DNA of 64,000 nt from assembly GCA_016188495.1 (NCBI GenBank), contig JACPHU010000006.1:1857-65856 (forward strand), written 5' to 3'. Source of the stretch: Candidatus Uhrbacteria bacterium. Its GTDB lineage: Bacteria > Patescibacteriota > Patescibacteriia > UBA9934 > GWF2-40-263. Positions 10,587 through 56,286 of the stretch are shown here, piece by piece; position 1 is the first letter of the stretch, and the number at the start of each line of letters is the position of its first letter. The notes below the pieces were generated by a model. It was not told where the DNA came from and did no database searches. It worked only from the letters and a program-made list of their open reading frames with translations. The position numbers and the translations under genes were made by a program.

Positions 10587-10750
10587 GAGACATCTCCAAA
10601 ACTCGCGATCTTGCCTTTCACGGGCGCCCGCCCGCCCGACTGAACGACGATCAATCCTGTTCAGTCGTTTGGGCGGGCAGCCTCCGCCAGAGGCGGATCT
10701 GCCTTCGGCATGACGTTCAAGGCAATCTCATCGAGTTTTGGAGATGTCTC
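10587..10750. repeat. MITE-like intergenic element (family B, copy 1) with perfect 19-bp terminal inverted repeats and a nested family-A GC hairpin
   Basis: The left TIR gagacatctccaaaactcg (10587-10605) is the exact reverse complement of the right TIR cgagttttggagatgtctc (10732-10750). The conserved shell cgcgatcttgcctttcacgggcgcc ... gttcaaggcaatctcatcga also occurs at 14499-14603. Confidence 0.75.
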
Positions 10751-11299: not shown

Positions 11300-11456
11300 G
11301 AAATACGTTAGTATTTTGAGGCAAATTAGGACTGCTCCCGAATGAGATTGCAACGTTCGGACTGGCAGCCTCTGAAAACGACCTGAGTCGGTCGTTGAAG
11401 AGGTGTCAGGGTGCCTGAACGTTGCAAGATCGCTCATTAGTGAACAGTCCTGATCC
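11300..11456 (+). ncRNA. candidate rod-like structured RNA immediately upstream of tRNA-Gly (6S-like architecture, identity unconfirmed)
   Basis: A ~33-bp imperfect duplex forms between 11318-11350 and 11413-11450, interrupted by small internal loops. It encloses a 14-bp apical hairpin (cctctgaaaacgacc/ggtcgttgaagagg). There is no ORF. Confidence 0.3.
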
Positions 11457-14484: not shown

Positions 14485-14491
14485 ATTCGTG

Positions 14492-14615
14492 GCTATCCTC
14501 AAATTCGCGATCTTGCCTTTCACGGGCGCCCAGGCACCCCGGAAGTCGTACGTTTGGGTACGTCTTCCGGGGCTGCCAGCCCGTTCAAGGCAATCTCATC
14601 GAATTGGAGAATAGC
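14492..14615. repeat. MITE-like element (family B, copy 2) abutting the tRNA-Pro 5' end
   Basis: The TIRs are imperfect: gctatcctcaaattcg versus cgaattggagaatagc (2 mismatches). The shell is the same as copy 1 (cgcgatcttgcctttcacgggcgcc ... gttcaaggcaatctcatcga). The inner hairpin differs (ccccggaagtcgtac/gtacgtcttccgggg). Confidence 0.7.
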
Positions 14616-16544: not shown

Positions 16545-16622
16545 GACTTTCTCACTTGGTGCATAGCTTTGCCTGCCTACCGGCAGGTAGGCAGGCGCTC
16601 TGCATCCAATTGAGAAAGTCCT
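16543..16622. promoter_or_regulatory. nested palindrome between the kinase and regulator genes (17-bp outer stem plus GC-rich inner hairpin)
   Basis: The outer arms are aggactttctcacttgg and ccaattgagaaagtcct (1 mismatch). The inner hairpin is gcctgcctacc ggc aggtaggcaggc. It overlaps the kinase stop codon. Confidence 0.5.
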
Positions 16623-24628: not shown

Positions 24629-24683
24629 ATCATCAAGTCCTTGACCTTGGAGCGGCTTTTCAGTAAACTACTCCCGTATTTAT

Positions 24684-24705
24684 GGGCGTGTAGCTCAGGT
24701 GGTTA
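24684..24705 (+). other. 22-nt duplicate of the tRNA-Ile 5' end (pseudo-tRNA fragment) fused to a family-A hairpin
   Basis: gggcgtgtagctcaggtggtta is identical to the first 22 nt of the tRNA-Ile at 24805. It then diverges into cccgcccgactgaacgacg. Confidence 0.7.
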
Positions 24706-24753
24706 CCCGCCCGACTGAACGACGAGGACTCCTATTCAGTCGTTCGGGCGGGG
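24706..24753. repeat. family-A GC-rich hairpin repeat, copy 2
   Basis: It reads cccgcccgactgaacgacg-aggactcctat-tcagtcgttcgggcgggg. The same stem occurs at 10624-10678 and 56189-56233. Confidence 0.75.
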
Positions 24754-24804
24754 AGCGCTTTACAATACGGAAGAAAAAAGAAAAATAAACAAGATACTCA
24801 TTAA

Positions 24805-24881
24805 GGGCGTGTAGCTCAGGTGGTTAGAGCGCAACACTGATAATGTTGAGGTCGGAGGTTCGAGTCCTCCCACGCCCACCA
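24805..24881 (+). tRNA. tRNA-Ile (anticodon GAT)
   Basis: The acceptor stem is GGGCGTG/CACGCCC. The D-arm is AGCTCAGGTGGTTAGAGC, the anticodon loop is CTGATAA and the T-loop is GGTTCGAGTCC. The 3' end is A-CCA. Confidence 0.9.
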
Positions 24882-25016
24882 CCCTACACTCTGGCTGTGT
24901 TCATCAGGGCCAGAGTGTAGGGTGGTCACCCATAGCCTCCCAGGCGACGGGTGACGTAAATCGTCGCCAGAGTTTCGGGTGGCCTTCGGCCAGATAGAAT
25001 AGGAAAGATACATCTT

Positions 25017-25091
<75 letters not shown>

Positions 25092-25209: not shown

Positions 25210-27228
25210 TTAGTAGAGCTCATCAATGCTGTCGGTTGTCTTTTTTGCATTTTCTGATGAGTAGTCTGTACTGCTATGAATCGTACTACCGATTTCGTAG
25301 CTTCCGTAAAATACGTCGTTGACTCCATCGATGCTGTTTGTCCAGTCTGTTCCAAATAAGGTTTCAGCGATTTCGCCATTGGCAATGGCGCGTAGCACGC
25401 CACCATAGGAGACAGCGTAGACCGTATTTGAGAGGAATTGAACCAGTTTTACTCCAGGTCGATGAGTCACGTTGCTTCCCAAGGGAATTTCAGACATTGC
25501 CGTACTAGAGAGAATGACGAGATCGTCGAAATCTGAAAACCAGGTATAAAAAATAGATTCGGTAGGGAATGCATGGCGTTTTCCGTCGGCTCCGTAGTAG
25601 TAGACAGGGGTACAAGGGTCATTCACATAGACATCTCCCTCGCAACCTATTTTAATCAAATCACCTCGCGACGCATGGTTTGAACCTGAACTTACGGTTA
25701 CGATTGTATTTTTTCCTGTTGTTTTATTTCCGTCATCGTCGGTACAGCGAGCGTAGAGTTCTTTGGTTCCATTTGAAGTAAATGTATGAGTGAGAGAGGC
25801 GATGTCCAAGAGAATCGTCATAGTCCCAACGTTTTCATCATCGATATACAGATCACACGATTCTATTGACCCATCGTCACTAATTCTTACAGAGTATGTG
25901 ACGCTTTCATTTTTAAGCGCCGTGGTAGGTAAGATCGCTTTTACCACAGGGGCACTGCTTGAGGCTGAATCAGCGTCTACGGTAAAATTAATGCTTACAG
26001 ATGTGCTTATATTTCCAACAAGGTCAATCGCATAGAGGGAAGCCGTGTGACTTCCATTTGTTAGAGTTATCGTAGGAGTGTAGGCCGTTGTTTTTCCAAT
26101 GTTCGCATAAGAAGCAGAGTCTAGCTTAAATGCATAACTTGCTATCGAAGATTCGTTATCGACTGCTGCCGTCCATGTGAAAGTAGGGGTTGTGTCCGTT
26201 AATGCGCTTGAGTCTCCTGTTACACTGAATGAAGTTGGTTTTTCTGGAGAAGTCGCATCGTAGCGGAAGATATCTCCATTAATACCCACGCCCCAACGCA
26301 CATCTGAAGAAACATAAGAAAGATCGAAAAGGGCTGTTGATTGAGAGGAAGAAATACTGGTCCAGGTTGTTCCGCCATCGGATGTTTGGAGTAATGTCCC
26401 GTTTAGTCCCGCCAGAATTCCATTTGATTTATCTCGAAAAGCAATGTCATTAATCGTTTCATTTGTTTCAAGACCAGATACGCTACTTACGCTCCATGTG
26501 CTTCCGCCATTGGTTGTTTTTAAAAGTGTTCTATTTTCTCCACCAATCCATCCATTTGATGAATCGACAAAAGACATAGCATTCAAGAGTTGTGTGGTTC
26601 CCGATGTAGAGGTCGTCCATGTTGTCCCCGTATCTGAACTTGAATAGATGGCACCACCTTCTCCAGCAATAATAATTTTTGTAGAACTGATTGCTCGTGC
26701 CGTGTATAAATCTGTTGTTGAGAGTTCTGCGATGGAAATATTTATTTGATTCCAACTGACACCGCCATCTGTTGTTTTAAGGACGGTTCCACTTTGACCT
26801 ACAGCAAATCCAATAGAGGAACTGGCCATCGTAATCGTATAAAGACTGGGTGAGGAATTAGTATTTGATGAAAGTAAAGAAGGAGAGATACTTTTCCATG
26901 TTTTTCCTCCATCTGTTGTTCGTCTGATGGTAGCGGAGTTTCCTACGGCTACAGCCGTACTCTCACTTAAGGCGTACACATCATTTAATTCAAAAGACGT
27001 TCCGCTTGATCCTTGGGACCAGGTTTTTCCGCTATCGTTGCTATAAAGAATCGTTCCTTCAGTTCCTACGGCGAAGAGCGTGTTTCCCGATAAGCTAATT
27101 CCTATAAGGGTGCTATTTACCGAAGAGTTATTGAGAGCCCATCCAGAAGCCCAAGTGATAGAAGGAAAAAAAAGAATGGTTACAAAGAGTGATAAAATAA
27201 AAAGAAAAGAACGATGGTATTTTTTCAT
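25210..27228 (-). CDS. secreted BNR/Asp-box repeat beta-propeller protein with C-terminal Ig-like/FN3-like domains
   Basis: It has a signal peptide (MKKYHRSFLFILSLFVTILFFPSITWA). At least six S-x-D-x-G-x-T-W Asp-box repeats follow (SNDSGKTWS, TTDGGKTWK, TTDGGVSWN, SSDTGTTWT, TTNGGSTWS, TSDGGTTWT). The distal part is Thr/Ser-rich beta-strand. Confidence 0.8.
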   Translation of the reverse strand: MKKYHRSFLFILSLFVTILFFPSITWASGWALNNSSVNSTLIGISLSGNTLFAVGTEGTILYSNDSGKTWSQGSSGTSFELNDVYALSESTAVAVGNSATIRRTTDGGKTWKSISPSLLSSNTNSSPSLYTITMASSSIGFAVGQSGTVLKTTDGGVSWNQINISIAELSTTDLYTARAISSTKIIIAGEGGAIYSSSDTGTTWTTSTSGTTQLLNAMSFVDSSNGWIGGENRTLLKTTNGGSTWSVSSVSGLETNETINDIAFRDKSNGILAGLNGTLLQTSDGGTTWTSISSSQSTALFDLSYVSSDVRWGVGINGDIFRYDATSPEKPTSFSVTGDSSALTDTTPTFTWTAAVDNESSIASYAFKLDSASYANIGKTTAYTPTITLTNGSHTASLYAIDLVGNISTSVSINFTVDADSASSSAPVVKAILPTTALKNESVTYSVRISDDGSIESCDLYIDDENVGTMTILLDIASLTHTFTSNGTKELYARCTDDDGNKTTGKNTIVTVSSGSNHASRGDLIKIGCEGDVYVNDPCTPVYYYGADGKRHAFPTESIFYTWFSDFDDLVILSSTAMSEIPLGSNVTHRPGVKLVQFLSNTVYAVSYGGVLRAIANGEIAETLFGTDWTNSIDGVNDVFYGSYEIGSTIHSSTDYSSENAKKTTDSIDELY

Positions 27229-27412: not shown

Positions 27413-28910
<1,498 letters not shown>

Positions 28911-51367: not shown

Positions 51368-51530
51368 GCTCTCTTCGTTCATTGGCAAAGTCTGGCTTGC
51401 CACGCCTTAAATACTCTTACATCAAAGTATTTAGAGCGCGGTAAGTCAGTAATAAAAAAAGTAGTTGATAGTCACCGGCATGGTTGTTGGTGGCTCAGAA
51501 ATCCAATCCCGAAAGGGAAGGAGAAAGCAA

Positions 51531-52613
51531 ATGTTGAATGAACAGTTCAAGGTCGCTCTGGTTGCCGAAGGTGTCAACGAGGAGAATCTCAAGCTCCTCG
51601 AGTCTCAGGAGCTGTGTGATGTCAGCGATTTCGCGACCCTGCAGCCTGCGGATCTGACTGTCGTCGGAATGAAGCTCGGTGGGATCAATAAGGTCTTCAG
51701 GGTTGTTCGAAGACTGGCGGCTCCCGTGGCCTCCACTCCGGCTCCGGAAGTTCAGATTCCCGTGACTCAGGTGACCCCGGTGTCCCTTCCTCCGGTCGTT
51801 CCGGTTCAGGTGGCTCCCGTGGCCCATGCTCCGGTTTCCTCCGGTGGGGGAGATCTGGGTACGCTGTTTTCGACGCTGATTCCGCCCCAGACCCCGCAGG
51901 AAGCGGCCGAAAGGCTCTGTCGTGCCCCGAGTGACGCAAAGAGCCAGGAGTACTGGAGGCAGTTCTTCGGTCAGGAGACCCTGATCGTCTCCTCGACTCC
52001 GGGCTCCATCGATCGCGACAAGACCATGGAAGCGGTCGAAATCTGGGTGACCTCCGGTGAGGCTCCTTCGGAGCTCGATGGAGTGCCTCTGCTGAGCATC
52101 AGCGAGTTCCTCCAGTCCACCTTCGGTGCGTGCCCCTTCACCGGGGACCGTATCATCCGAGGTGGGATGTCGCTGAAGACCAACGTTCACTACGGGTTCT
52201 TGCTCGGGAATGATGTTTCGCTCTCGGCGATCCAGAATAGCCCCGGAATGAACTTCGTGGCGTTCGCCGCCGAAACCGGCAAGATCACCCGCGACCTTCA
52301 GACCTGGAAGACGCGGATGCTCGAGCTTCGCAGCATGGTCCAGGGCAAGGATATCTCCAGCCCCACGGCCATCAAGGCGGCCGTCGCCGGATCCGCGTGG
52401 GATGAAGTCGCGACCGACTACATCCGTGACGCCAATTCCGGTGGTGTCGTCGCCATGCGCGCTCGGGCACGGCTGGTGACCCAGGCCAAGCGACGGACCG
52501 TTCGGGCCCGCAACGACCTGTCGGGAATCGGAGAGGCTCTGACCTCCGGTTTCGACAAGGTCACCCGCCAGGACGGCTCCGTCCCCCGTCGGGATTTCGA
52601 ATCCCGCGGCTGA
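51531..52613 (+). CDS. island gene A: hypothetical protein (small N-terminal domain, Pro/Val-rich linker, unknown C-terminal domain)
   Basis: A GGAAGGAG RBS precedes ATG 51531. Its GC3 is much higher than the backbone. The linker is APVASTPAPEVQIPVTQVTPVSLPPVVPVQVAPVAHAPV. A terminator follows at 52728-52752. Confidence 0.65.
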   Translation: MLNEQFKVALVAEGVNEENLKLLESQELCDVSDFATLQPADLTVVGMKLGGINKVFRVVRRLAAPVASTPAPEVQIPVTQVTPVSLPPVVPVQVAPVAHAPVSSGGGDLGTLFSTLIPPQTPQEAAERLCRAPSDAKSQEYWRQFFGQETLIVSSTPGSIDRDKTMEAVEIWVTSGEAPSELDGVPLLSISEFLQSTFGACPFTGDRIIRGGMSLKTNVHYGFLLGNDVSLSAIQNSPGMNFVAFAAETGKITRDLQTWKTRMLELRSMVQGKDISSPTAIKAAVAGSAWDEVATDYIRDANSGGVVAMRARARLVTQAKRRTVRARNDLSGIGEALTSGFDKVTRQDGSVPRRDFESRG

Positions 52614-52727
52614 TAGATCGATCAACTCCGTCGGTTCCGACCATGACGGCGCAAGGGTAGCACTCAGTGCCCGGTGTCTGGTTGGACCTTCGGCCATTAC
52701 TCTATTACCCCTACGAAGGGAGTCCCC

Positions 52728-52752
52728 TGGACTCCCTTTTTCACTAGGCGAT
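52728..52752 (+). terminator. intrinsic terminator after island gene A
   Basis: The hairpin gggagtcc/ggactccc is followed by a T6 run. Confidence 0.7.
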
Positions 52753-52856
52753 TTATTTTCAAAATGAATCGTGTAGCGAAAGCATGTAGGCTTTCAATCA
52801 GTATTTTAGATCGGTCCTTTTGGATCGATTGTGTTCACAACAAAGGAGAGAATTCA

Positions 52857-54014
52857 ATGTCCAAACCCAATGAACTCAGACATGACAACCTAGTAATCGG
52901 GGTGAATTTTCCGGTCAAGTCGACTAACGCCGGGACAGGGTTGGTGGGTGGCTTCCCCTGGCCGGTACACAATGCGGCCGACTATAAGGACCGTGTTCCT
53001 GCCGCGTGGTTATCGGCCATGGGGCCTCGTCATGTGATCTTTTTCCTGGGTGCACCTGACCCGACCCGTCATTTTGATGAACAGGGTCTTGCCGAGCACG
53101 AGGTGGAACTGGATCAGAACGGCTGTCCCCGCGATCGTGAGATGTGGTTTGATTTTCAGGGGATGAATACCCTTGATCGTCACGTTGCTGTTGTGCTCGG
53201 TGTCCAGGGACTCAATGCTCTGACCGGACTTCCGACTTCTTCGGAACACAAGAGAGGACTGTACAACGGTCCCGGGTGTCCGAAACCCGAGCAGTATCCG
53301 GATGTTTGTCCGGTGCACGGTACCCCGTTCGAAGATCATCGGCGGATGTGTTCGGACTGTGGGTTCGAGTGGCCGTATCAGAATTACGTCACCAACTCCG
53401 TGACCGATCCAATGTTCCGCTTCTGGTGGGATGGGTGGCGCGGGGCGGACGGCAAGATCCAGCAATTCGCCATGCGTCCGGCTTCGGCTGGTGTCGGCGT
53501 GGCCCAGCAGGTGCTGGGCGAGGATCGTGCGCTGGGACTGAGTCTGGCTGTGTTTCTCAAGAAGCGACCCAAGCCGGCTCCGGTTTCCTCCTATCGTCAC
53601 TCCGATTTCCTCGAGTCTGACATCGTTTCCAAAGGGTTTTTGGGAGGTGGTGGAAAGAAGGTCTATTCTTTTGGAATGGGCGGAGAAGAGGAGGAAGAGG
53701 TGTATCGTTCGCCCACCCTCGGAACCACACGCGAGGCCACTCGTGGAGACACTACTCGAGGTGGTGTCCTGGGCGGCCGTCCTTCCGTTTCTCGGATCGG
53801 TGCTCCGTCTCGGATGGAGTTCGTCGCCGGTCGAACGGTCTTTCAGAAACTCTATTCCGATAATTCCACCCTGGACGAGTGGAGGGATGAACCCGAGGTG
53901 ACCTTCACCTTGATTCCCGTGGACATGGCGTGGGCGGCCGAGGTAACCAAGTACGGTCCCACCACGCGACAAGTTGCCACCGGACCGTTCGCGGGTCTCA
54001 AGAGCGTCGGCTGA
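52857..54014 (+). CDS. island gene B: hypothetical protein (Cys/His cluster, Gly-rich low-complexity segment)
   Basis: An AAAGGAGAG RBS precedes ATG 52857. It contains CPVHGTPF...CSDCGFEW and FWWDGWRGADG, which match no recognized family. It is GC-rich. Confidence 0.6.
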   Translation: MSKPNELRHDNLVIGVNFPVKSTNAGTGLVGGFPWPVHNAADYKDRVPAAWLSAMGPRHVIFFLGAPDPTRHFDEQGLAEHEVELDQNGCPRDREMWFDFQGMNTLDRHVAVVLGVQGLNALTGLPTSSEHKRGLYNGPGCPKPEQYPDVCPVHGTPFEDHRRMCSDCGFEWPYQNYVTNSVTDPMFRFWWDGWRGADGKIQQFAMRPASAGVGVAQQVLGEDRALGLSLAVFLKKRPKPAPVSSYRHSDFLESDIVSKGFLGGGGKKVYSFGMGGEEEEEVYRSPTLGTTREATRGDTTRGGVLGGRPSVSRIGAPSRMEFVAGRTVFQKLYSDNSTLDEWRDEPEVTFTLIPVDMAWAAEVTKYGPTTRQVATGPFAGLKSVG

Positions 54015-54164
54015 TTTCCGACGTAACACGGTCAAGATCGATTCCCACGGAGTCGGCCCTTGACCCTTTTCTTGGGAAGAGAAGAGGAGTAATCCTTTGG
54101 CTCTTCTGAAGAGAAGAAATTTGCTTTCGACCTTTACAAATGAAGTTGAGATAAGGAGGTTTAG

Positions 54165-55004
54165 ATGAAAGGCAATAACACAGAGGCGACCTACTATCCT
54201 GGTAAGTCAGTGGCGAAAACCCCGCATTATGAGCTGTTTTACTGTGAGACCGAGAACGGTCGGCAGTGTCTCATGCAGATCGCTAAAGCACCGGAACACA
54301 ACGGGGTACTCGATCGGTTCGCATATGTGCTGCGCGAGCTCAAGCATAAGGCAGACGAGCTCGAAGAAGAACATGAAGAGAAGAAAAAGGATCCTGCTAA
54401 TGGGATTCCTGCTCACGTGTTCTTGAATTACGATCTTGGTTTCCCCCAGGTCGTCGACAGTTTCATCAGTTCCGAACAGGGTGGATGTCGAATCAATATC
54501 TTGGCCTTTAGGGAAGTTGAGCGCGTGTCTGACATGCACCCTCTGGCAAAGTATATTCGAGTGGCCAATGAGCGGTGCGATCTGCGAACCAGTATCTGGA
54601 TCATGGGCAGGACGCTCAAGTTGATCGATCTGGTGCATATGATGGGATTTTCTCTTCAGGAGATGAAGACAGGTAATATTCTCATTCAGCCTGAAGAACA
54701 TCACGTTGTGCTGTTTAATCCTGGCATTCAAATGTGTCCGGGAGAAGTTCCTTTGGAACAGCGGCGCAAGGAGATTGCTCAGGCGACCACGTCGGTTATT
54801 CAGTTGTTGGGCGGCAATATTCTTACACGAGAATTCCCCCAAGATCTCAAGTCGGAGATTGGGTGTAAGGAATATACGGATCATCTCCTCATGCTGGCCG
54901 CCGGAGGAGAATACGACGCCCATGCGGCGTATCGTCGTTTCTATCAGCTTATTGATCGGTTTTGGGAGCGGAAGTTTCATCGTGCTCAGTTTTTGGCACG
55001 CTGA
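54165..55004 (+). CDS. island gene C: protein-kinase-fold-like protein lacking the catalytic Asp residues (possible pseudokinase or atypical nucleotide-binding enzyme)
   Basis: A TAAGGAGG RBS is present. CLMQIAK resembles the beta3 Lys segment. HMMGFSLQEMKTGNILIQPEEHHVVLFNPG resembles the catalytic loop plus DFG region, with D replaced by Q and by N. Confidence 0.55.
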   Translation: MKGNNTEATYYPGKSVAKTPHYELFYCETENGRQCLMQIAKAPEHNGVLDRFAYVLRELKHKADELEEEHEEKKKDPANGIPAHVFLNYDLGFPQVVDSFISSEQGGCRINILAFREVERVSDMHPLAKYIRVANERCDLRTSIWIMGRTLKLIDLVHMMGFSLQEMKTGNILIQPEEHHVVLFNPGIQMCPGEVPLEQRRKEIAQATTSVIQLLGGNILTREFPQDLKSEIGCKEYTDHLLMLAAGGEYDAHAAYRRFYQLIDRFWERKFHRAQFLAR

Positions 55005-55040
55005 AAATAGACGAAACATGAACGAAAAGGGAGAGAAAAA

Positions 55041-56180
55041 ATGGGAAATCGTACCCCGTCTCGTGATACGTATGAAGAGGCAAAATCGACATATGTTCCG
55101 GATTCTGGACCTGCTACAGCTCGCGCTGAACAACAAGCGCGAAGGACAGGAAAACTTCATCCGCTGGTTGATCCGGCGGAATTCGGAGTGATCCGCCCTT
55201 CGCATATGCGAATGAAACAGCTTCTAAACGGGCTTTGGTCTGTGAATGTAGGAACACCATTGCCACGTCAGCGGCGCGTAGATACGACGGCCAGTATGGG
55301 TAATAACGTCGATGTGGTTCTTGGTGTCTTGCAGGATGCGTACGAGCTGGCTATGCAGGTTCTGCCTGTTGGGTATGACCTGCAGGAAGCCAATGAGATC
55401 TTCGGAGATATACAAGATAGGTTTGTGCTTTGCCGTTCGCAGTTTGAGATGCTCTCTGAGCGGATCGTGGAGCAGCTGACCTTGATGGTTCCTGAGCGTG
55501 ATGGCGGAGATGTTCCAGAAGACCCTCACTACGGGTTGTTTGGAGCAGCCTACTTGACCGATGCCTATATTAATCGCATCGGTCTTAAGGGTTACGACTT
55601 CACCGTCTCTGATGCAGAGGCTCGATACGAGTTGGAGGCACGACATCTTCGTCGAATTTTCGGAGATCAGGTCTTCGATAAGACGAAGGAAAACGGTTAC
55701 GATATTGATCCTCGGCATCTTCCCAGCACCAAAGAGGTGGTTCGTGAGCTTGCCAAACGATCTCATTATTTCTTCCTTCAGATCAAGTCCTCTTCACAGG
55801 CGACTCGTTTCTGGACGGATGTGTTCGGTTCTGAACGGGTCGTGCTGGTACCAGATGCCAAATATGTCCCTCATATTGAAGCCGTGATCATGGGTCTGAC
55901 CGAAGGGACCCTGAGTCTGTCGGACGTCACTCCGTTTCTCATGAAGAATGGCGTCGATCGCAATGACGCTCAACGAATCGTCCGGGCTGTGGGACATATT
56001 CCGATCGGCGCGCAGGCTGCTTTGCCCAACGTTGCCCGGCGTCCCAAAGCAGGTGACCTGTTTCGAGAGAAGCCTGTCGGTACGCAGACCAGTCCTTGGC
56101 CGCTGACCCCCGAGGAAATCGCCGCGTTTAATCTCGACTCTTCGGCAGAGCAGGACGAAGGCGAGATCAGCTGGGTCTGA
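55041..56180 (+). CDS. island gene D: hypothetical protein (379 aa)
   Basis: An AAAAGGGAGAG RBS is present. It is GC-rich and has no recognizable motif. Confidence 0.6.
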   Translation: MGNRTPSRDTYEEAKSTYVPDSGPATARAEQQARRTGKLHPLVDPAEFGVIRPSHMRMKQLLNGLWSVNVGTPLPRQRRVDTTASMGNNVDVVLGVLQDAYELAMQVLPVGYDLQEANEIFGDIQDRFVLCRSQFEMLSERIVEQLTLMVPERDGGDVPEDPHYGLFGAAYLTDAYINRIGLKGYDFTVSDAEARYELEARHLRRIFGDQVFDKTKENGYDIDPRHLPSTKEVVRELAKRSHYFFLQIKSSSQATRFWTDVFGSERVVLVPDAKYVPHIEAVIMGLTEGTLSLSDVTPFLMKNGVDRNDAQRIVRAVGHIPIGAQAALPNVARRPKAGDLFREKPVGTQTSPWPLTPEEIAAFNLDSSAEQDEGEISWV

Positions 56181-56188
56181 GGTAACAA

Positions 56189-56233
56189 CCCGCCCGACTG
56201 AACGACGAGGAGTTCTGTTCAGTCGTTCGGGCA
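56189..56233. repeat. family-A GC-rich hairpin repeat, copy 3, directly after island gene D
   Basis: It reads cccgcccgactgaacgacg-aggagttctg-ttcagtcgttcgggca. Confidence 0.7.
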
Positions 56234-56238
56234 AGCGC

Positions 56239-56286
56239 GGTCGAAGTGATTCCATAGGGAGTCATTTCGACCTTTTTTTGAAGAGA
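56239..56286 (+). terminator. intrinsic terminator
   Basis: The hairpin ggtcgaa...ttcgacc is followed by a T7 run. Confidence 0.65.

Follow-up and report, generated by a model that had tools for sequence, protein, structure and literature searches.

We examined a chromosome segment of 64,000 nucleotides from Candidatus Uhrbacteria (Patescibacteria), referred to here as the window, and within it a short block of DNA immediately upstream of the gene for tRNA-Ile. The segment carries rpoB, rpoC, pilB, smc and a 16S gene, and its RpoC is 100% identical to an NCBI protein listed under Candidatus Uhrbacteria bacterium. The intact tRNA-Ile(GAT) gene occupies positions 24805–24881 of the forward strand (ARAGORN; Rfam, 74.7 bits), and tRNA-Phe lies at 25017–25091 (ARAGORN, Rfam). 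A promoter scan placed the sigma-70-like promoter of the tRNA-Ile/tRNA-Phe unit, TTGACC-17-TAAACT, at 24641–24669, and the native tRNA leader, actcccgtatttat, runs from 24670 to 24683. Between this leader and the intact tRNA, on the same strand, lie 121 bp (24684–24804) made up of a 28-nt duplicate of the start of the tRNA, a palindrome of 47 bp and a spacer of 46 bp. The ancestral promoter now stands upstream of this partial copy, which we call the stub.

The stub is interrupted by the palindrome. Its first 22 nt (24684–24705) exactly duplicate positions 24805–24826 and span the 5' strand of the acceptor stem, the 5' strand of the D-stem and the D-loop. This 22-mer, GGGCGTGTAGCTCAGGTGGTTA, occurs exactly twice in the window (0.00 expected in shuffles), and its reading as the tRNA-Ile 5' end, already made in the first-pass annotation of this DNA, agrees base for base with the tRNA-Ile(GAT) predicted by ARAGORN and Rfam. 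The palindrome, one of three window copies of a family that we call HP, follows at 24706–24752 with the design CCCGCCC-GACT-GAACGAC-loop-GTCGTTC-GGGCGGG. The tRNA sequence then resumes as gagcgc (24753–24758). These six bases equal tRNA positions 22–27 and take in the D-stem 3' strand, position 26 and the base that opens the anticodon stem. Once the palindrome was removed in silico, the stub agreed with the tRNA at 28 of 28 positions, and the sequence beyond it at 10 of 46. The first-pass annotation had described a hairpin fused to the duplicate at an abrupt switch and had ended the feature at 24760. The uninterrupted 28-nt match indicates that the switch is an insertion inside the stub, and 24760 overshoots the stub end by 2 nt. 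The palindrome entered between the last base of the D-loop and G22, at which the 3' strand of the D-stem begins, and duplicated none of its target; the empty-site paralogue is the intact tRNA 100 bp downstream.

The palindrome is predicted to fold stably both as DNA (−15.4 kcal/mol, z −4.6) and as RNA (−25.5 kcal/mol, z −4.3). The A-rich spacer (24759–24804) contains promoter-like hexamers in the promoter scan, TTTACA-16-AAAAAT and also TACAAT. Its similarity to the native leader and promoter is not significant (p about 0.11), so the block is not a plain tandem duplication of local sequence. The gap between the two tRNA repeats is 99 bp and has no coding capacity. The locus is identical base for base in two independent Logan assemblies (L064 and L065; loci outside the window are designated by L and a number), and it is therefore not an assembly artefact of this record. 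We note that the motif TTTACAA(T/G) directly follows a tRNA stub in three arrangements that lack an open reading frame (ORF), at 24759–24766 in the window, about 1515 in L021 and about 3815 in L043; it could be a −10-like TACAAT element that arrived with the block, or a coincidence.

The syntenic tRNA-Ile of two relatives has neither stub nor hairpin. One of them, L160, came from a metagenome scan with the tRNA-Ile core and has a 16S gene 97.9% identical over 753 nt; its TTGACC-17-TAAACT promoter, tRNA-Ile and tRNA-Phe are arranged as in the window, and a near-identical leader, ccgtatttat, abuts the intact tRNA. The other, L217, was found by a look-up via the upstream pilin-like protein (87% identical), and its leader, identical to that of the window, likewise runs straight onto tRNA-Ile. 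(A syntenic-locus look-up via P0261 reached a paralogous pilin cluster.) The promoter element and its distance to the tRNA are the same in these empty-site relatives, the intact tRNA-Ile is identical in sequence, and the 46-bp spacer is missing from both. The empty sites make the 121-bp block lineage-specific, and on this comparison of sequences an insertion in the window lineage would be a simpler reading than a loss in the relatives.

A more distant syntenic relative, L186, suggests a longer history at this locus. In the region 2100–2450 of L186, a nearly full-length pseudo-tRNA-Ile of the window's sequence type lies upstream of an intact tRNA-Ile and carries, in its acceptor stem and T-loop, three other small palindromes. 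The intact gene is a different allele, a difference that suggests that a foreign or paralogous copy took over. With this arrangement, the tRNA-Ile at the locus has apparently been replaced or duplicated more than once.

The HP palindrome family and its insertion sites

Exact matches to the 5' arm of the palindrome, CCCGCCCGACTGAACGACG, are found at 10631, 24706 and 56189 of the forward strand and nowhere else in the window (0.03 expected). This bears out the recurrence reported in the first-pass annotation, with the limits of the first copy corrected to 10631–10677. Extra CCCG repeats precede that copy, which sits at the tip of a repeat that forms a long hairpin of 165 nt between the genes yebC and ruvC. 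The third copy (56189–56233), with a stop codon on one side and an intrinsic terminator on the other, has a 3' arm whose final bases are missing. The aagcgc after it resembles the tRNA-derived gagcgc after the second copy (56228–56239 compared with 24748–24758); this likeness suggests that one copy came from a tRNA-embedded copy along with its flanking bases.

Across 185,579 reference genomes, the exact 19-mer of HP was present in 63 loci, about 45 of which contained the full palindrome. The rest were bare 19-mers in coding-like, GC-rich DNA, which is consistent with chance. By the labels of the metagenome-assembled genomes (MAGs), full copies came from Patescibacteria (about 20 loci), Bacteroidota (about 15), Ignavibacteriales (8) and a few others, and several bins of Bacteroidota and Ignavibacteriales gave many HP contigs each. 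HP is multi-copy within a MAG and frequently placed at contig ends, as expected of a multi-copy repeat. The canonical member is a 36-mer, CCCGCCC-GACT-GAACGAC-GTCA-GTCGTTC-GGGCGGG, and the window copies belong to a subfamily with a loop 11 nt larger. Sister families, such as CCCGCCC-GAAC-GTACC-GTTC-GGTAC-GGGCGGG, have the CCCGCCC/GGGCGGG termini and the interleaved design in common with HP, and members are nested in one another. Our literature search in full text found no description of the HP palindrome or of the stub, GIY-YIG and tRNA layout described below.

The stem can be drawn in two registers, as 14 bp with a 5' GACT bulge or as 13–15 bp with a 3' GTTC bulge, and the minimum-energy folds of the three window copies are divided between them. 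Across 20 distinct members the two registers were 97.9% and 93.4% paired, with one compensatory change each (in L187 and L201); covariation cannot choose between the registers, since there is little variation and most copies were seeded with the 5' arm. In Rfam 15, no family covered any of the three window copies at the gathering threshold, and none covered the second copy at E ≤ 10. The sole match at E ≤ 10, mir-341 for the first copy, reached 15 bits against a 90-bit cutoff and was taken as chance. A phage vector was also considered and rejected, as the only match in 2.9 million viral contigs was a single 19-mer with no 3' arm or palindrome context. Nor is HP a ubiquitous terminator, an identity that the first-pass annotation had held open: no T-run follows the stem (GGGCGGGgagcgcttta), the terminator scan was silent at the hairpin, and the element occurs in both orientations relative to the tRNA.

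Insertion of HP is exact. In the window and in L024, L043, L055, L059 and L201, comparison of each stub with the adjacent intact tRNA showed zero bases duplicated or lost, which argues against a miniature inverted-repeat transposable element with target-site duplication. The same D-loop site is used in either orientation in roughly equal numbers, and the orthologous Val(tac) cassettes of L024 and L049 (the cassettes are described in the next section) carry an identical HP in opposite orientations. The flanks of HP tend to be complementary to each other: among 43 non-redundant copies the mean best stem was 4.72, compared with 3.90 ± 0.18 in mismatched controls, and 0 of 500 controls were as high. 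HP thus tends toward the loop or loop/stem junction of another stem-loop. Its hosts include D-loops, anticodon loops and T-loops of tRNA sequence, other palindromes and terminator-like hairpins, and it is also found in unrelated intergenic sites and decaying pseudo-tRNAs. None of the intact tRNAs at the loci examined carried HP. The family tolerates the D-arm, anticodon loop and T-loop of dead tRNA copies, and its distribution (multi-copy, in either orientation, nested and loop-preferring) suggests that it behaves as mobile or fast-turnover DNA.

The same layout at other tRNA genes

Partial tRNA copies recur at other loci that carry HP. Among the HP-seeded loci and the window, 19 of 39 tRNAs had a fragment of themselves nearby, mostly a 5' stub 50–350 nt upstream. 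Stubs with a palindrome in the D-arm and no ORF were present for tRNA-Ile and tRNA-Val in L011, tRNA-Val and tRNA-Ile in L021, tRNA-Pro in L043, tRNA-Thr in L056, tRNA-Ile in L201 and also in L045. Versions with a GIY-YIG gene, which we call cassettes, were found among the HP-seeded loci in L024, L049, L055, L059, L061 (two), L027 and L043. Here an ORF of ~79 aa lies between the stub and the tRNA and matches Pfam GIY-YIG (PF01541, E 1e-10 to 1e-14) as well as the UPF0213 structures 1YWL and 1ZG2, as a bare catalytic domain. The stub usually ends near the anticodon stem/loop, and the ORF starts 3–30 nt beyond. In at least 12 of 16 cases the ORF ends at T8-A9-G10 of the intact tRNA. In L024, L043, L049, L055, L057, L059, L187, L194, L201, L206, L212 and L216 these ORFs lack a stop codon of their own and run into the downstream tRNA for seven bases before ending at its conserved T8-A9-G10.

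To remove the bias of the 19-mer seed, loci were also fetched by identity of the GIY-YIG protein alone. This protein has 316 homologues at E<1e-5, annotated at best as 'GIY-YIG nuclease family protein' or 'putative endonuclease'. The complete layout was present in eight of the nine distinct loci obtained in this way, each with a CCCGCCC…GGGCGGG palindrome in the stub at tRNA position 9|10, 13|14 or 21|22. The ninth locus, L202, had no stub and no palindrome. Orthologous cassettes differed in their palindromes or in palindrome position (L187 compared with L206, and L194 compared with L212), which points to palindrome turnover independent of the cassette.

The layout extends beyond bins labelled as Candidate Phyla Radiation (CPR). 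Stub, palindrome and GIY-YIG gene were found together in one Bacteroidales MAG and one 'Gammaproteobacteria' MAG. In L057, a tRNA-Asn stub with two small palindromes is followed by a GIY-YIG gene and then by the tRNA, and in L058, from a Bacteroidales bin, a 3' fragment of tRNA-Arg with HP in its T-loop precedes a GIY-YIG remnant.

Fragments of the other end of the gene occur as well. Downstream of the intact gene, L021, L024, L055, L056 and L059 retain decayed 3' fragments of the same tRNA, and the one in L055 starts exactly at position 22. Downstream of intact tRNAs in L024, L039, L055 and L059, such fragments take the form T-stem–TTCGAAC–[30–150-nt insert]–GAATC–T-stem–acceptor, and these T-loop inserts point to what may be another insertion class. 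A more complex case is L056 (5120–5580, minus strand), where a tRNA-Thr flanked by 13-bp inverted repeats, TCCCGCACCTTTC and GAAAGGTGCGGGA, interrupts another tRNA gene, so that the outer tRNA is split into a 5' part and a 3' part around it. Several tandem Thr stubs each carry a different palindrome. A perfect palindrome in the window (16571–16596, GCCTGCCTACC-GGCA-GGTAGGCAGGC) resembles the CCTGCC-type palindrome in a tRNA-Thr stub of this locus.

Other repeats and neighbouring genes of the window

A second repeat family in the window consists of long hairpins. Copies at 10588–10750 and 14490–14615, the latter on the minus strand, fold with z −9.9 and −11.7, and a partial copy lies at about 11400–11440. 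The copies share arms with an exact 22-mer, CCCGTGAAAGGCAAGATCGCGA, and one lies immediately upstream of tRNA-Pro. A match of that copy to the large signal recognition particle RNA (19 bits, E 0.76) vanished when the search range was changed and was rejected. The copy between yebC and ruvC holds two small palindromes at its apex in addition to HP, and sequence related to the long hairpins flanks HP in L019, L039, L042, L050 and L057.

The third HP copy stands at the right edge of a GC-richer stretch (51465–56180; 0.54 compared with about 0.45) that contains four ORFs of 279–446 aa with no Pfam match. This stretch may be the 'island' with which the first-pass annotation had associated that copy.

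Variation was also seen on the other side of tRNA-Ile. The spacer between tRNA-Ile and tRNA-Phe (24882–25016) measures 135 nt in the window, is similar in L160 and is only 16 nt in L217. The extra DNA consists of hairpins, including a palindrome with a 14-bp stem right after the tRNA 3' end, whose counterpart in L160 has another sequence and the same structure. The 16S gene (27415–28910, minus strand) has no 23S gene after it. Between it and the terminator of tRNA-Phe lies a gene for a BNR/PKD-domain protein of 672 aa (25210–27228), which is absent in L160, where 16S lies within about 250 bp of tRNA-Phe.

Comparison with known systems and origin of the block

Several known classes of short palindromes share features with HP. 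Repetitive extragenic palindromes (REP) and bacterial interspersed mosaic elements (BIME), associated with REP-associated tyrosine transposases (RAYT), and elements derived from IS200/IS605 are short imperfect palindromes with an asymmetric bulge that are extragenic, multi-copy and free of target-site duplication. HP is alike in these respects, as a multi-copy imperfect palindrome whose three window copies are all intergenic or in a leader, and a single-strand hairpin would be a plausible substrate for HP as for these elements. Hairpin elements of the IS200/IS605 type insert strand-specifically, 3' of one fixed tetra- or pentanucleotide, and have distinct left and right ends with TnpA/TnpB nearby. 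HP insertions duplicate no target and often have a 5' flank that ends in TA, but one and the same D-loop site is used in both orientations, and neither TnpA nor TnpB was seen. REPs, palindromes of about 20–40 nt, are species-specific, keep a conserved flanking tetranucleotide of the GTAG type and go with a RAYT (Y1 transposase) gene in the genome. HP differs from them: its core is identical across phyla, its flanks vary and lack such a tetranucleotide, a site can be occupied in either orientation, and neither the window ORFs nor the other loci showed a Y1 (HUH) transposase.

The nearest analogues of HP are the GC-rich palindromic clusters of fungal mitochondria. GC clusters such as yeast GC42 and the Neurospora palindromes that flank tRNA genes are mobile GC-rich palindromes (PMC4478555). 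Like them, HP is a hairpin repeat of 30–50 bp, GC-rich in an AT-richer genome, multi-copy and intergenic, with presence/absence polymorphism, a conserved stem, a variable loop, merging or nesting, and a location near tRNA genes. Yeast GC clusters duplicate an AG target (PMC4478555), whereas insertion of HP is exact. HP also differs in being bacterial and spread across phyla, in its register-shifted (bistable) stem and in its position in tRNA stubs next to GIY-YIG genes.

For the cassettes, the closest comparison is SegB of phage T4, a free-standing GIY-YIG homing endonuclease whose gene lies in a tRNA cluster (PMC2330249). Both are small GIY-YIG genes among or beside tRNA genes, present in some and absent from other related genomes. 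However, SegB has a DNA-binding region and lies between intact phage tRNA genes, whereas the cassette protein is a bare 79-aa domain of the UPF0213 type encoded in the chromosome. The cassette ORF, unlike segB, takes its stop codon from the tRNA and comes with a 5' stub and a palindrome, and the window has no nuclease gene at all. None of the known systems compared fits the HP and stub block as a family.

We favour, with a little better than even confidence, the reading that 24684–24804 is a derived scar of selfish DNA in the leader of the tRNA-Ile/tRNA-Phe unit. The scar would combine a replacement or duplication of the tRNA 5' end with an HP insertion into the resulting stub, and would be the ORF-less form of a GIY-YIG cassette. 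A block with a new copy of tRNA positions 1–27, preceded by the 46-bp spacer and its promoter-like hexamers, would have been placed before the rest of the gene. This would have kept the tRNA intact and left the old 5' end as a 28-nt stub on the ancestral promoter, and HP would have entered the stub between the last D-loop base and the D-stem 3' strand with no target duplication. GIY-YIG nucleases may act on the DNA of tRNA genes, with repair creating and spreading stubs while the tRNA is regenerated, and the palindromes may colonise or protect the stub. The sequences show the anatomy of the block, the precision of insertion, the empty sites in relatives, the recurrence of the layout and its association with GIY-YIG genes, whereas we infer the direction of the event, the tie of the window copy to GIY-YIG cassettes and any enzymatic mechanism. 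The consequence of the extra 121 nt is likely neutral, as they would add a longer 5' leader that is cut off by RNase P or would be bypassed via a promoter in the spacer.

By analogy with the loci that retain the ORF, the window copy would be a cassette form in which the nuclease gene was never present or has been lost. Since the spacer shows no significant similarity to the ends of GIY-YIG genes, its cassette origin is argued by analogy as well. On the same ground we rejected the spacer as a remnant of a GIY-YIG 3' end; a short in-frame ORF to the tRNA's TAG and a likeness to GGAAGAA…AAAAGAAA are of low complexity and unproven.

Several observations weigh against the scar reading. No GIY-YIG gene lies within the 64-kb window (tblastn best E 0.3; no match to the GIY-YIG hidden Markov model), the comparison of the spacer with 3' ends of GIY-YIG genes by an anchored position-specific scoring matrix was not significant (p = 0.14), and no enzyme for palindrome mobility was identified. 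The two relatives may instead have lost the block, if their 28-nt repeats had recombined with each other. The pseudo-tRNA-Ile upstream of tRNA-Ile in L186 is different from the window stub and longer. Cassettes occupy one and the same locus in diverged lineages, between EF-Ts and tRNA-Thr in L187 and L206 and between ftsH and tRNA-Ile in L194 and L212; together with a protein that is about 70% conserved, these shared loci look like long residence and not frequent homing. Finally, the sample of HP copies is biased, as most of them were retrieved with an exact 19-mer seed, and the phylum labels of MAGs can be wrong.

The alternative that survives best, which we consider unlikely, invokes two unrelated events, a tandem duplication of the tRNA 5' region by replication slippage and a later chance insertion of a palindrome, with no role for GIY-YIG proteins. 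Plain tandem duplications that include the native leader do exist, in L011 Ile (a 22-nt leader duplicated), L056 and L011 Val (four 52-nt units). The lack of a GIY-YIG gene in the window would fit this sequence of events, as would the differing palindromes of orthologous stubs, which imply independent insertion. However, the spacer does not copy the native leader, even though the two 28-nt repeats agree at every base, and the block is therefore not a simple tandem duplication. The tie between stub, palindrome and GIY-YIG ORF in eight of nine loci chosen without reference to HP also speaks against two independent accidents.

It is improbable that the stub and hairpin are a selected element of the pre-tRNA leader, for example an attenuator, a site bound by a protein or a hairpin that serves processing or stability. 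The high stability of the hairpin as RNA, its predicted position in a transcribed leader downstream of a conserved promoter, and the nearly complete pairing of both registers with one compensatory change each would fit such a function, and GC-rich palindromes beside Neurospora mitochondrial tRNA genes were once proposed as processing signals (Yin et al. 1981, cited in PMC4478555). However, close relatives have the same promoter and tRNA with no block, and HP occurs in both orientations relative to the tRNA, in unrelated intergenic sites, inside decaying pseudo-tRNAs and nested in other palindromes.

The first-pass annotation had read the duplication as a footprint of site-specific integration at a tRNA gene or of repeat-mediated rearrangement. 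The second part stands in the form of a rearrangement or insertion, given the relatives with neither stub nor hairpin and the presence of the hairpin family at rearranged tRNA loci. The first part, an attL/attR footprint of an integrase-borne island or prophage or the remnant after its excision, is very improbable. Integrating elements are known to leave partial tRNA genes behind (PMC9897764), and the block is like such fragments in that a partial copy stands next to an intact tRNA and is missing in relatives, with an empty site in L160 and L217. In an integrase footprint the duplicated att core is the 3' part of the tRNA, or the stretch from the anticodon loop or T-loop to the 3' end. In contrast, the block duplicates the 5' end of the tRNA (positions 1–27), it measures 121 bp and not kilobases, and the 99 non-coding bp between its repeats hold no recombinase gene and no kilobases of foreign DNA. 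We scanned 34 window ORFs of at least 149 aa against Pfam or NCBIfam, and no integrase, transposase, recombinase or GIY-YIG protein was found among them. The 19-mer is also essentially absent from the 2.9 million viral contigs.

Least credible of all, and rejected, is a second tRNA, degenerate or with the hairpin as a D-loop intron, or an assembly artefact: the hairpin does lie exactly at the loop/stem junction between the D-stem strands GCTC and GAGC, but the copy falls to 10/46 identity beyond position 27 with no anticodon arm or T arm once HP is removed, relaxed ARAGORN runs with and without the hairpin and Rfam at E ≤ 10 returned no gene, and two assemblies are identical.

A wider reading can be put forward tentatively, as a possibility that we rather doubt. 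The palindromes and the 79-aa UPF0213-type GIY-YIG nucleases might together form one unrecognised mobile system of Patescibacteria, Bacteroidota and Ignavibacteriota that attacks loop/stem junctions of tRNA genes, and also of other hairpins that resemble structured RNA, and survives by regenerating the essential tRNA. The cassette would bring with it a promoter and either a fresh 5' part or an entire tRNA, and the nuclease ORF would use the universal U8-A9-G10 of the tRNA as a borrowed stop. A palindrome at the cleavage site would neutralise the displaced stub, and the window would hold a miniature, nuclease-less derivative.

Genes for tRNAs are classic landing pads of mobile DNA, where an integrase inserts its element and the 3' end of the tRNA is duplicated. 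The arrangement in the window is a mirror image of this logic, with the 5' end duplicated, no kilobase cargo and a tiny palindrome in the D-arm, and it recurs at many tRNA species in the ultra-small genomes of CPR bacteria, often with a minimal GIY-YIG nuclease fused to the start of the tRNA. That a non-coding palindrome of 36 nt is nearly identical in several phyla directly marks horizontal exchange. If the link between palindrome, stub and nuclease holds, it would define a novel route by which selfish DNA exploits essential RNA genes while the host survives, and would offer a bare-domain nuclease with a possibly structure-specific target. It would also account for many otherwise unannotated 'GIY-YIG nuclease family protein' genes, and for contig breaks and pseudo-tRNA calls in MAGs.

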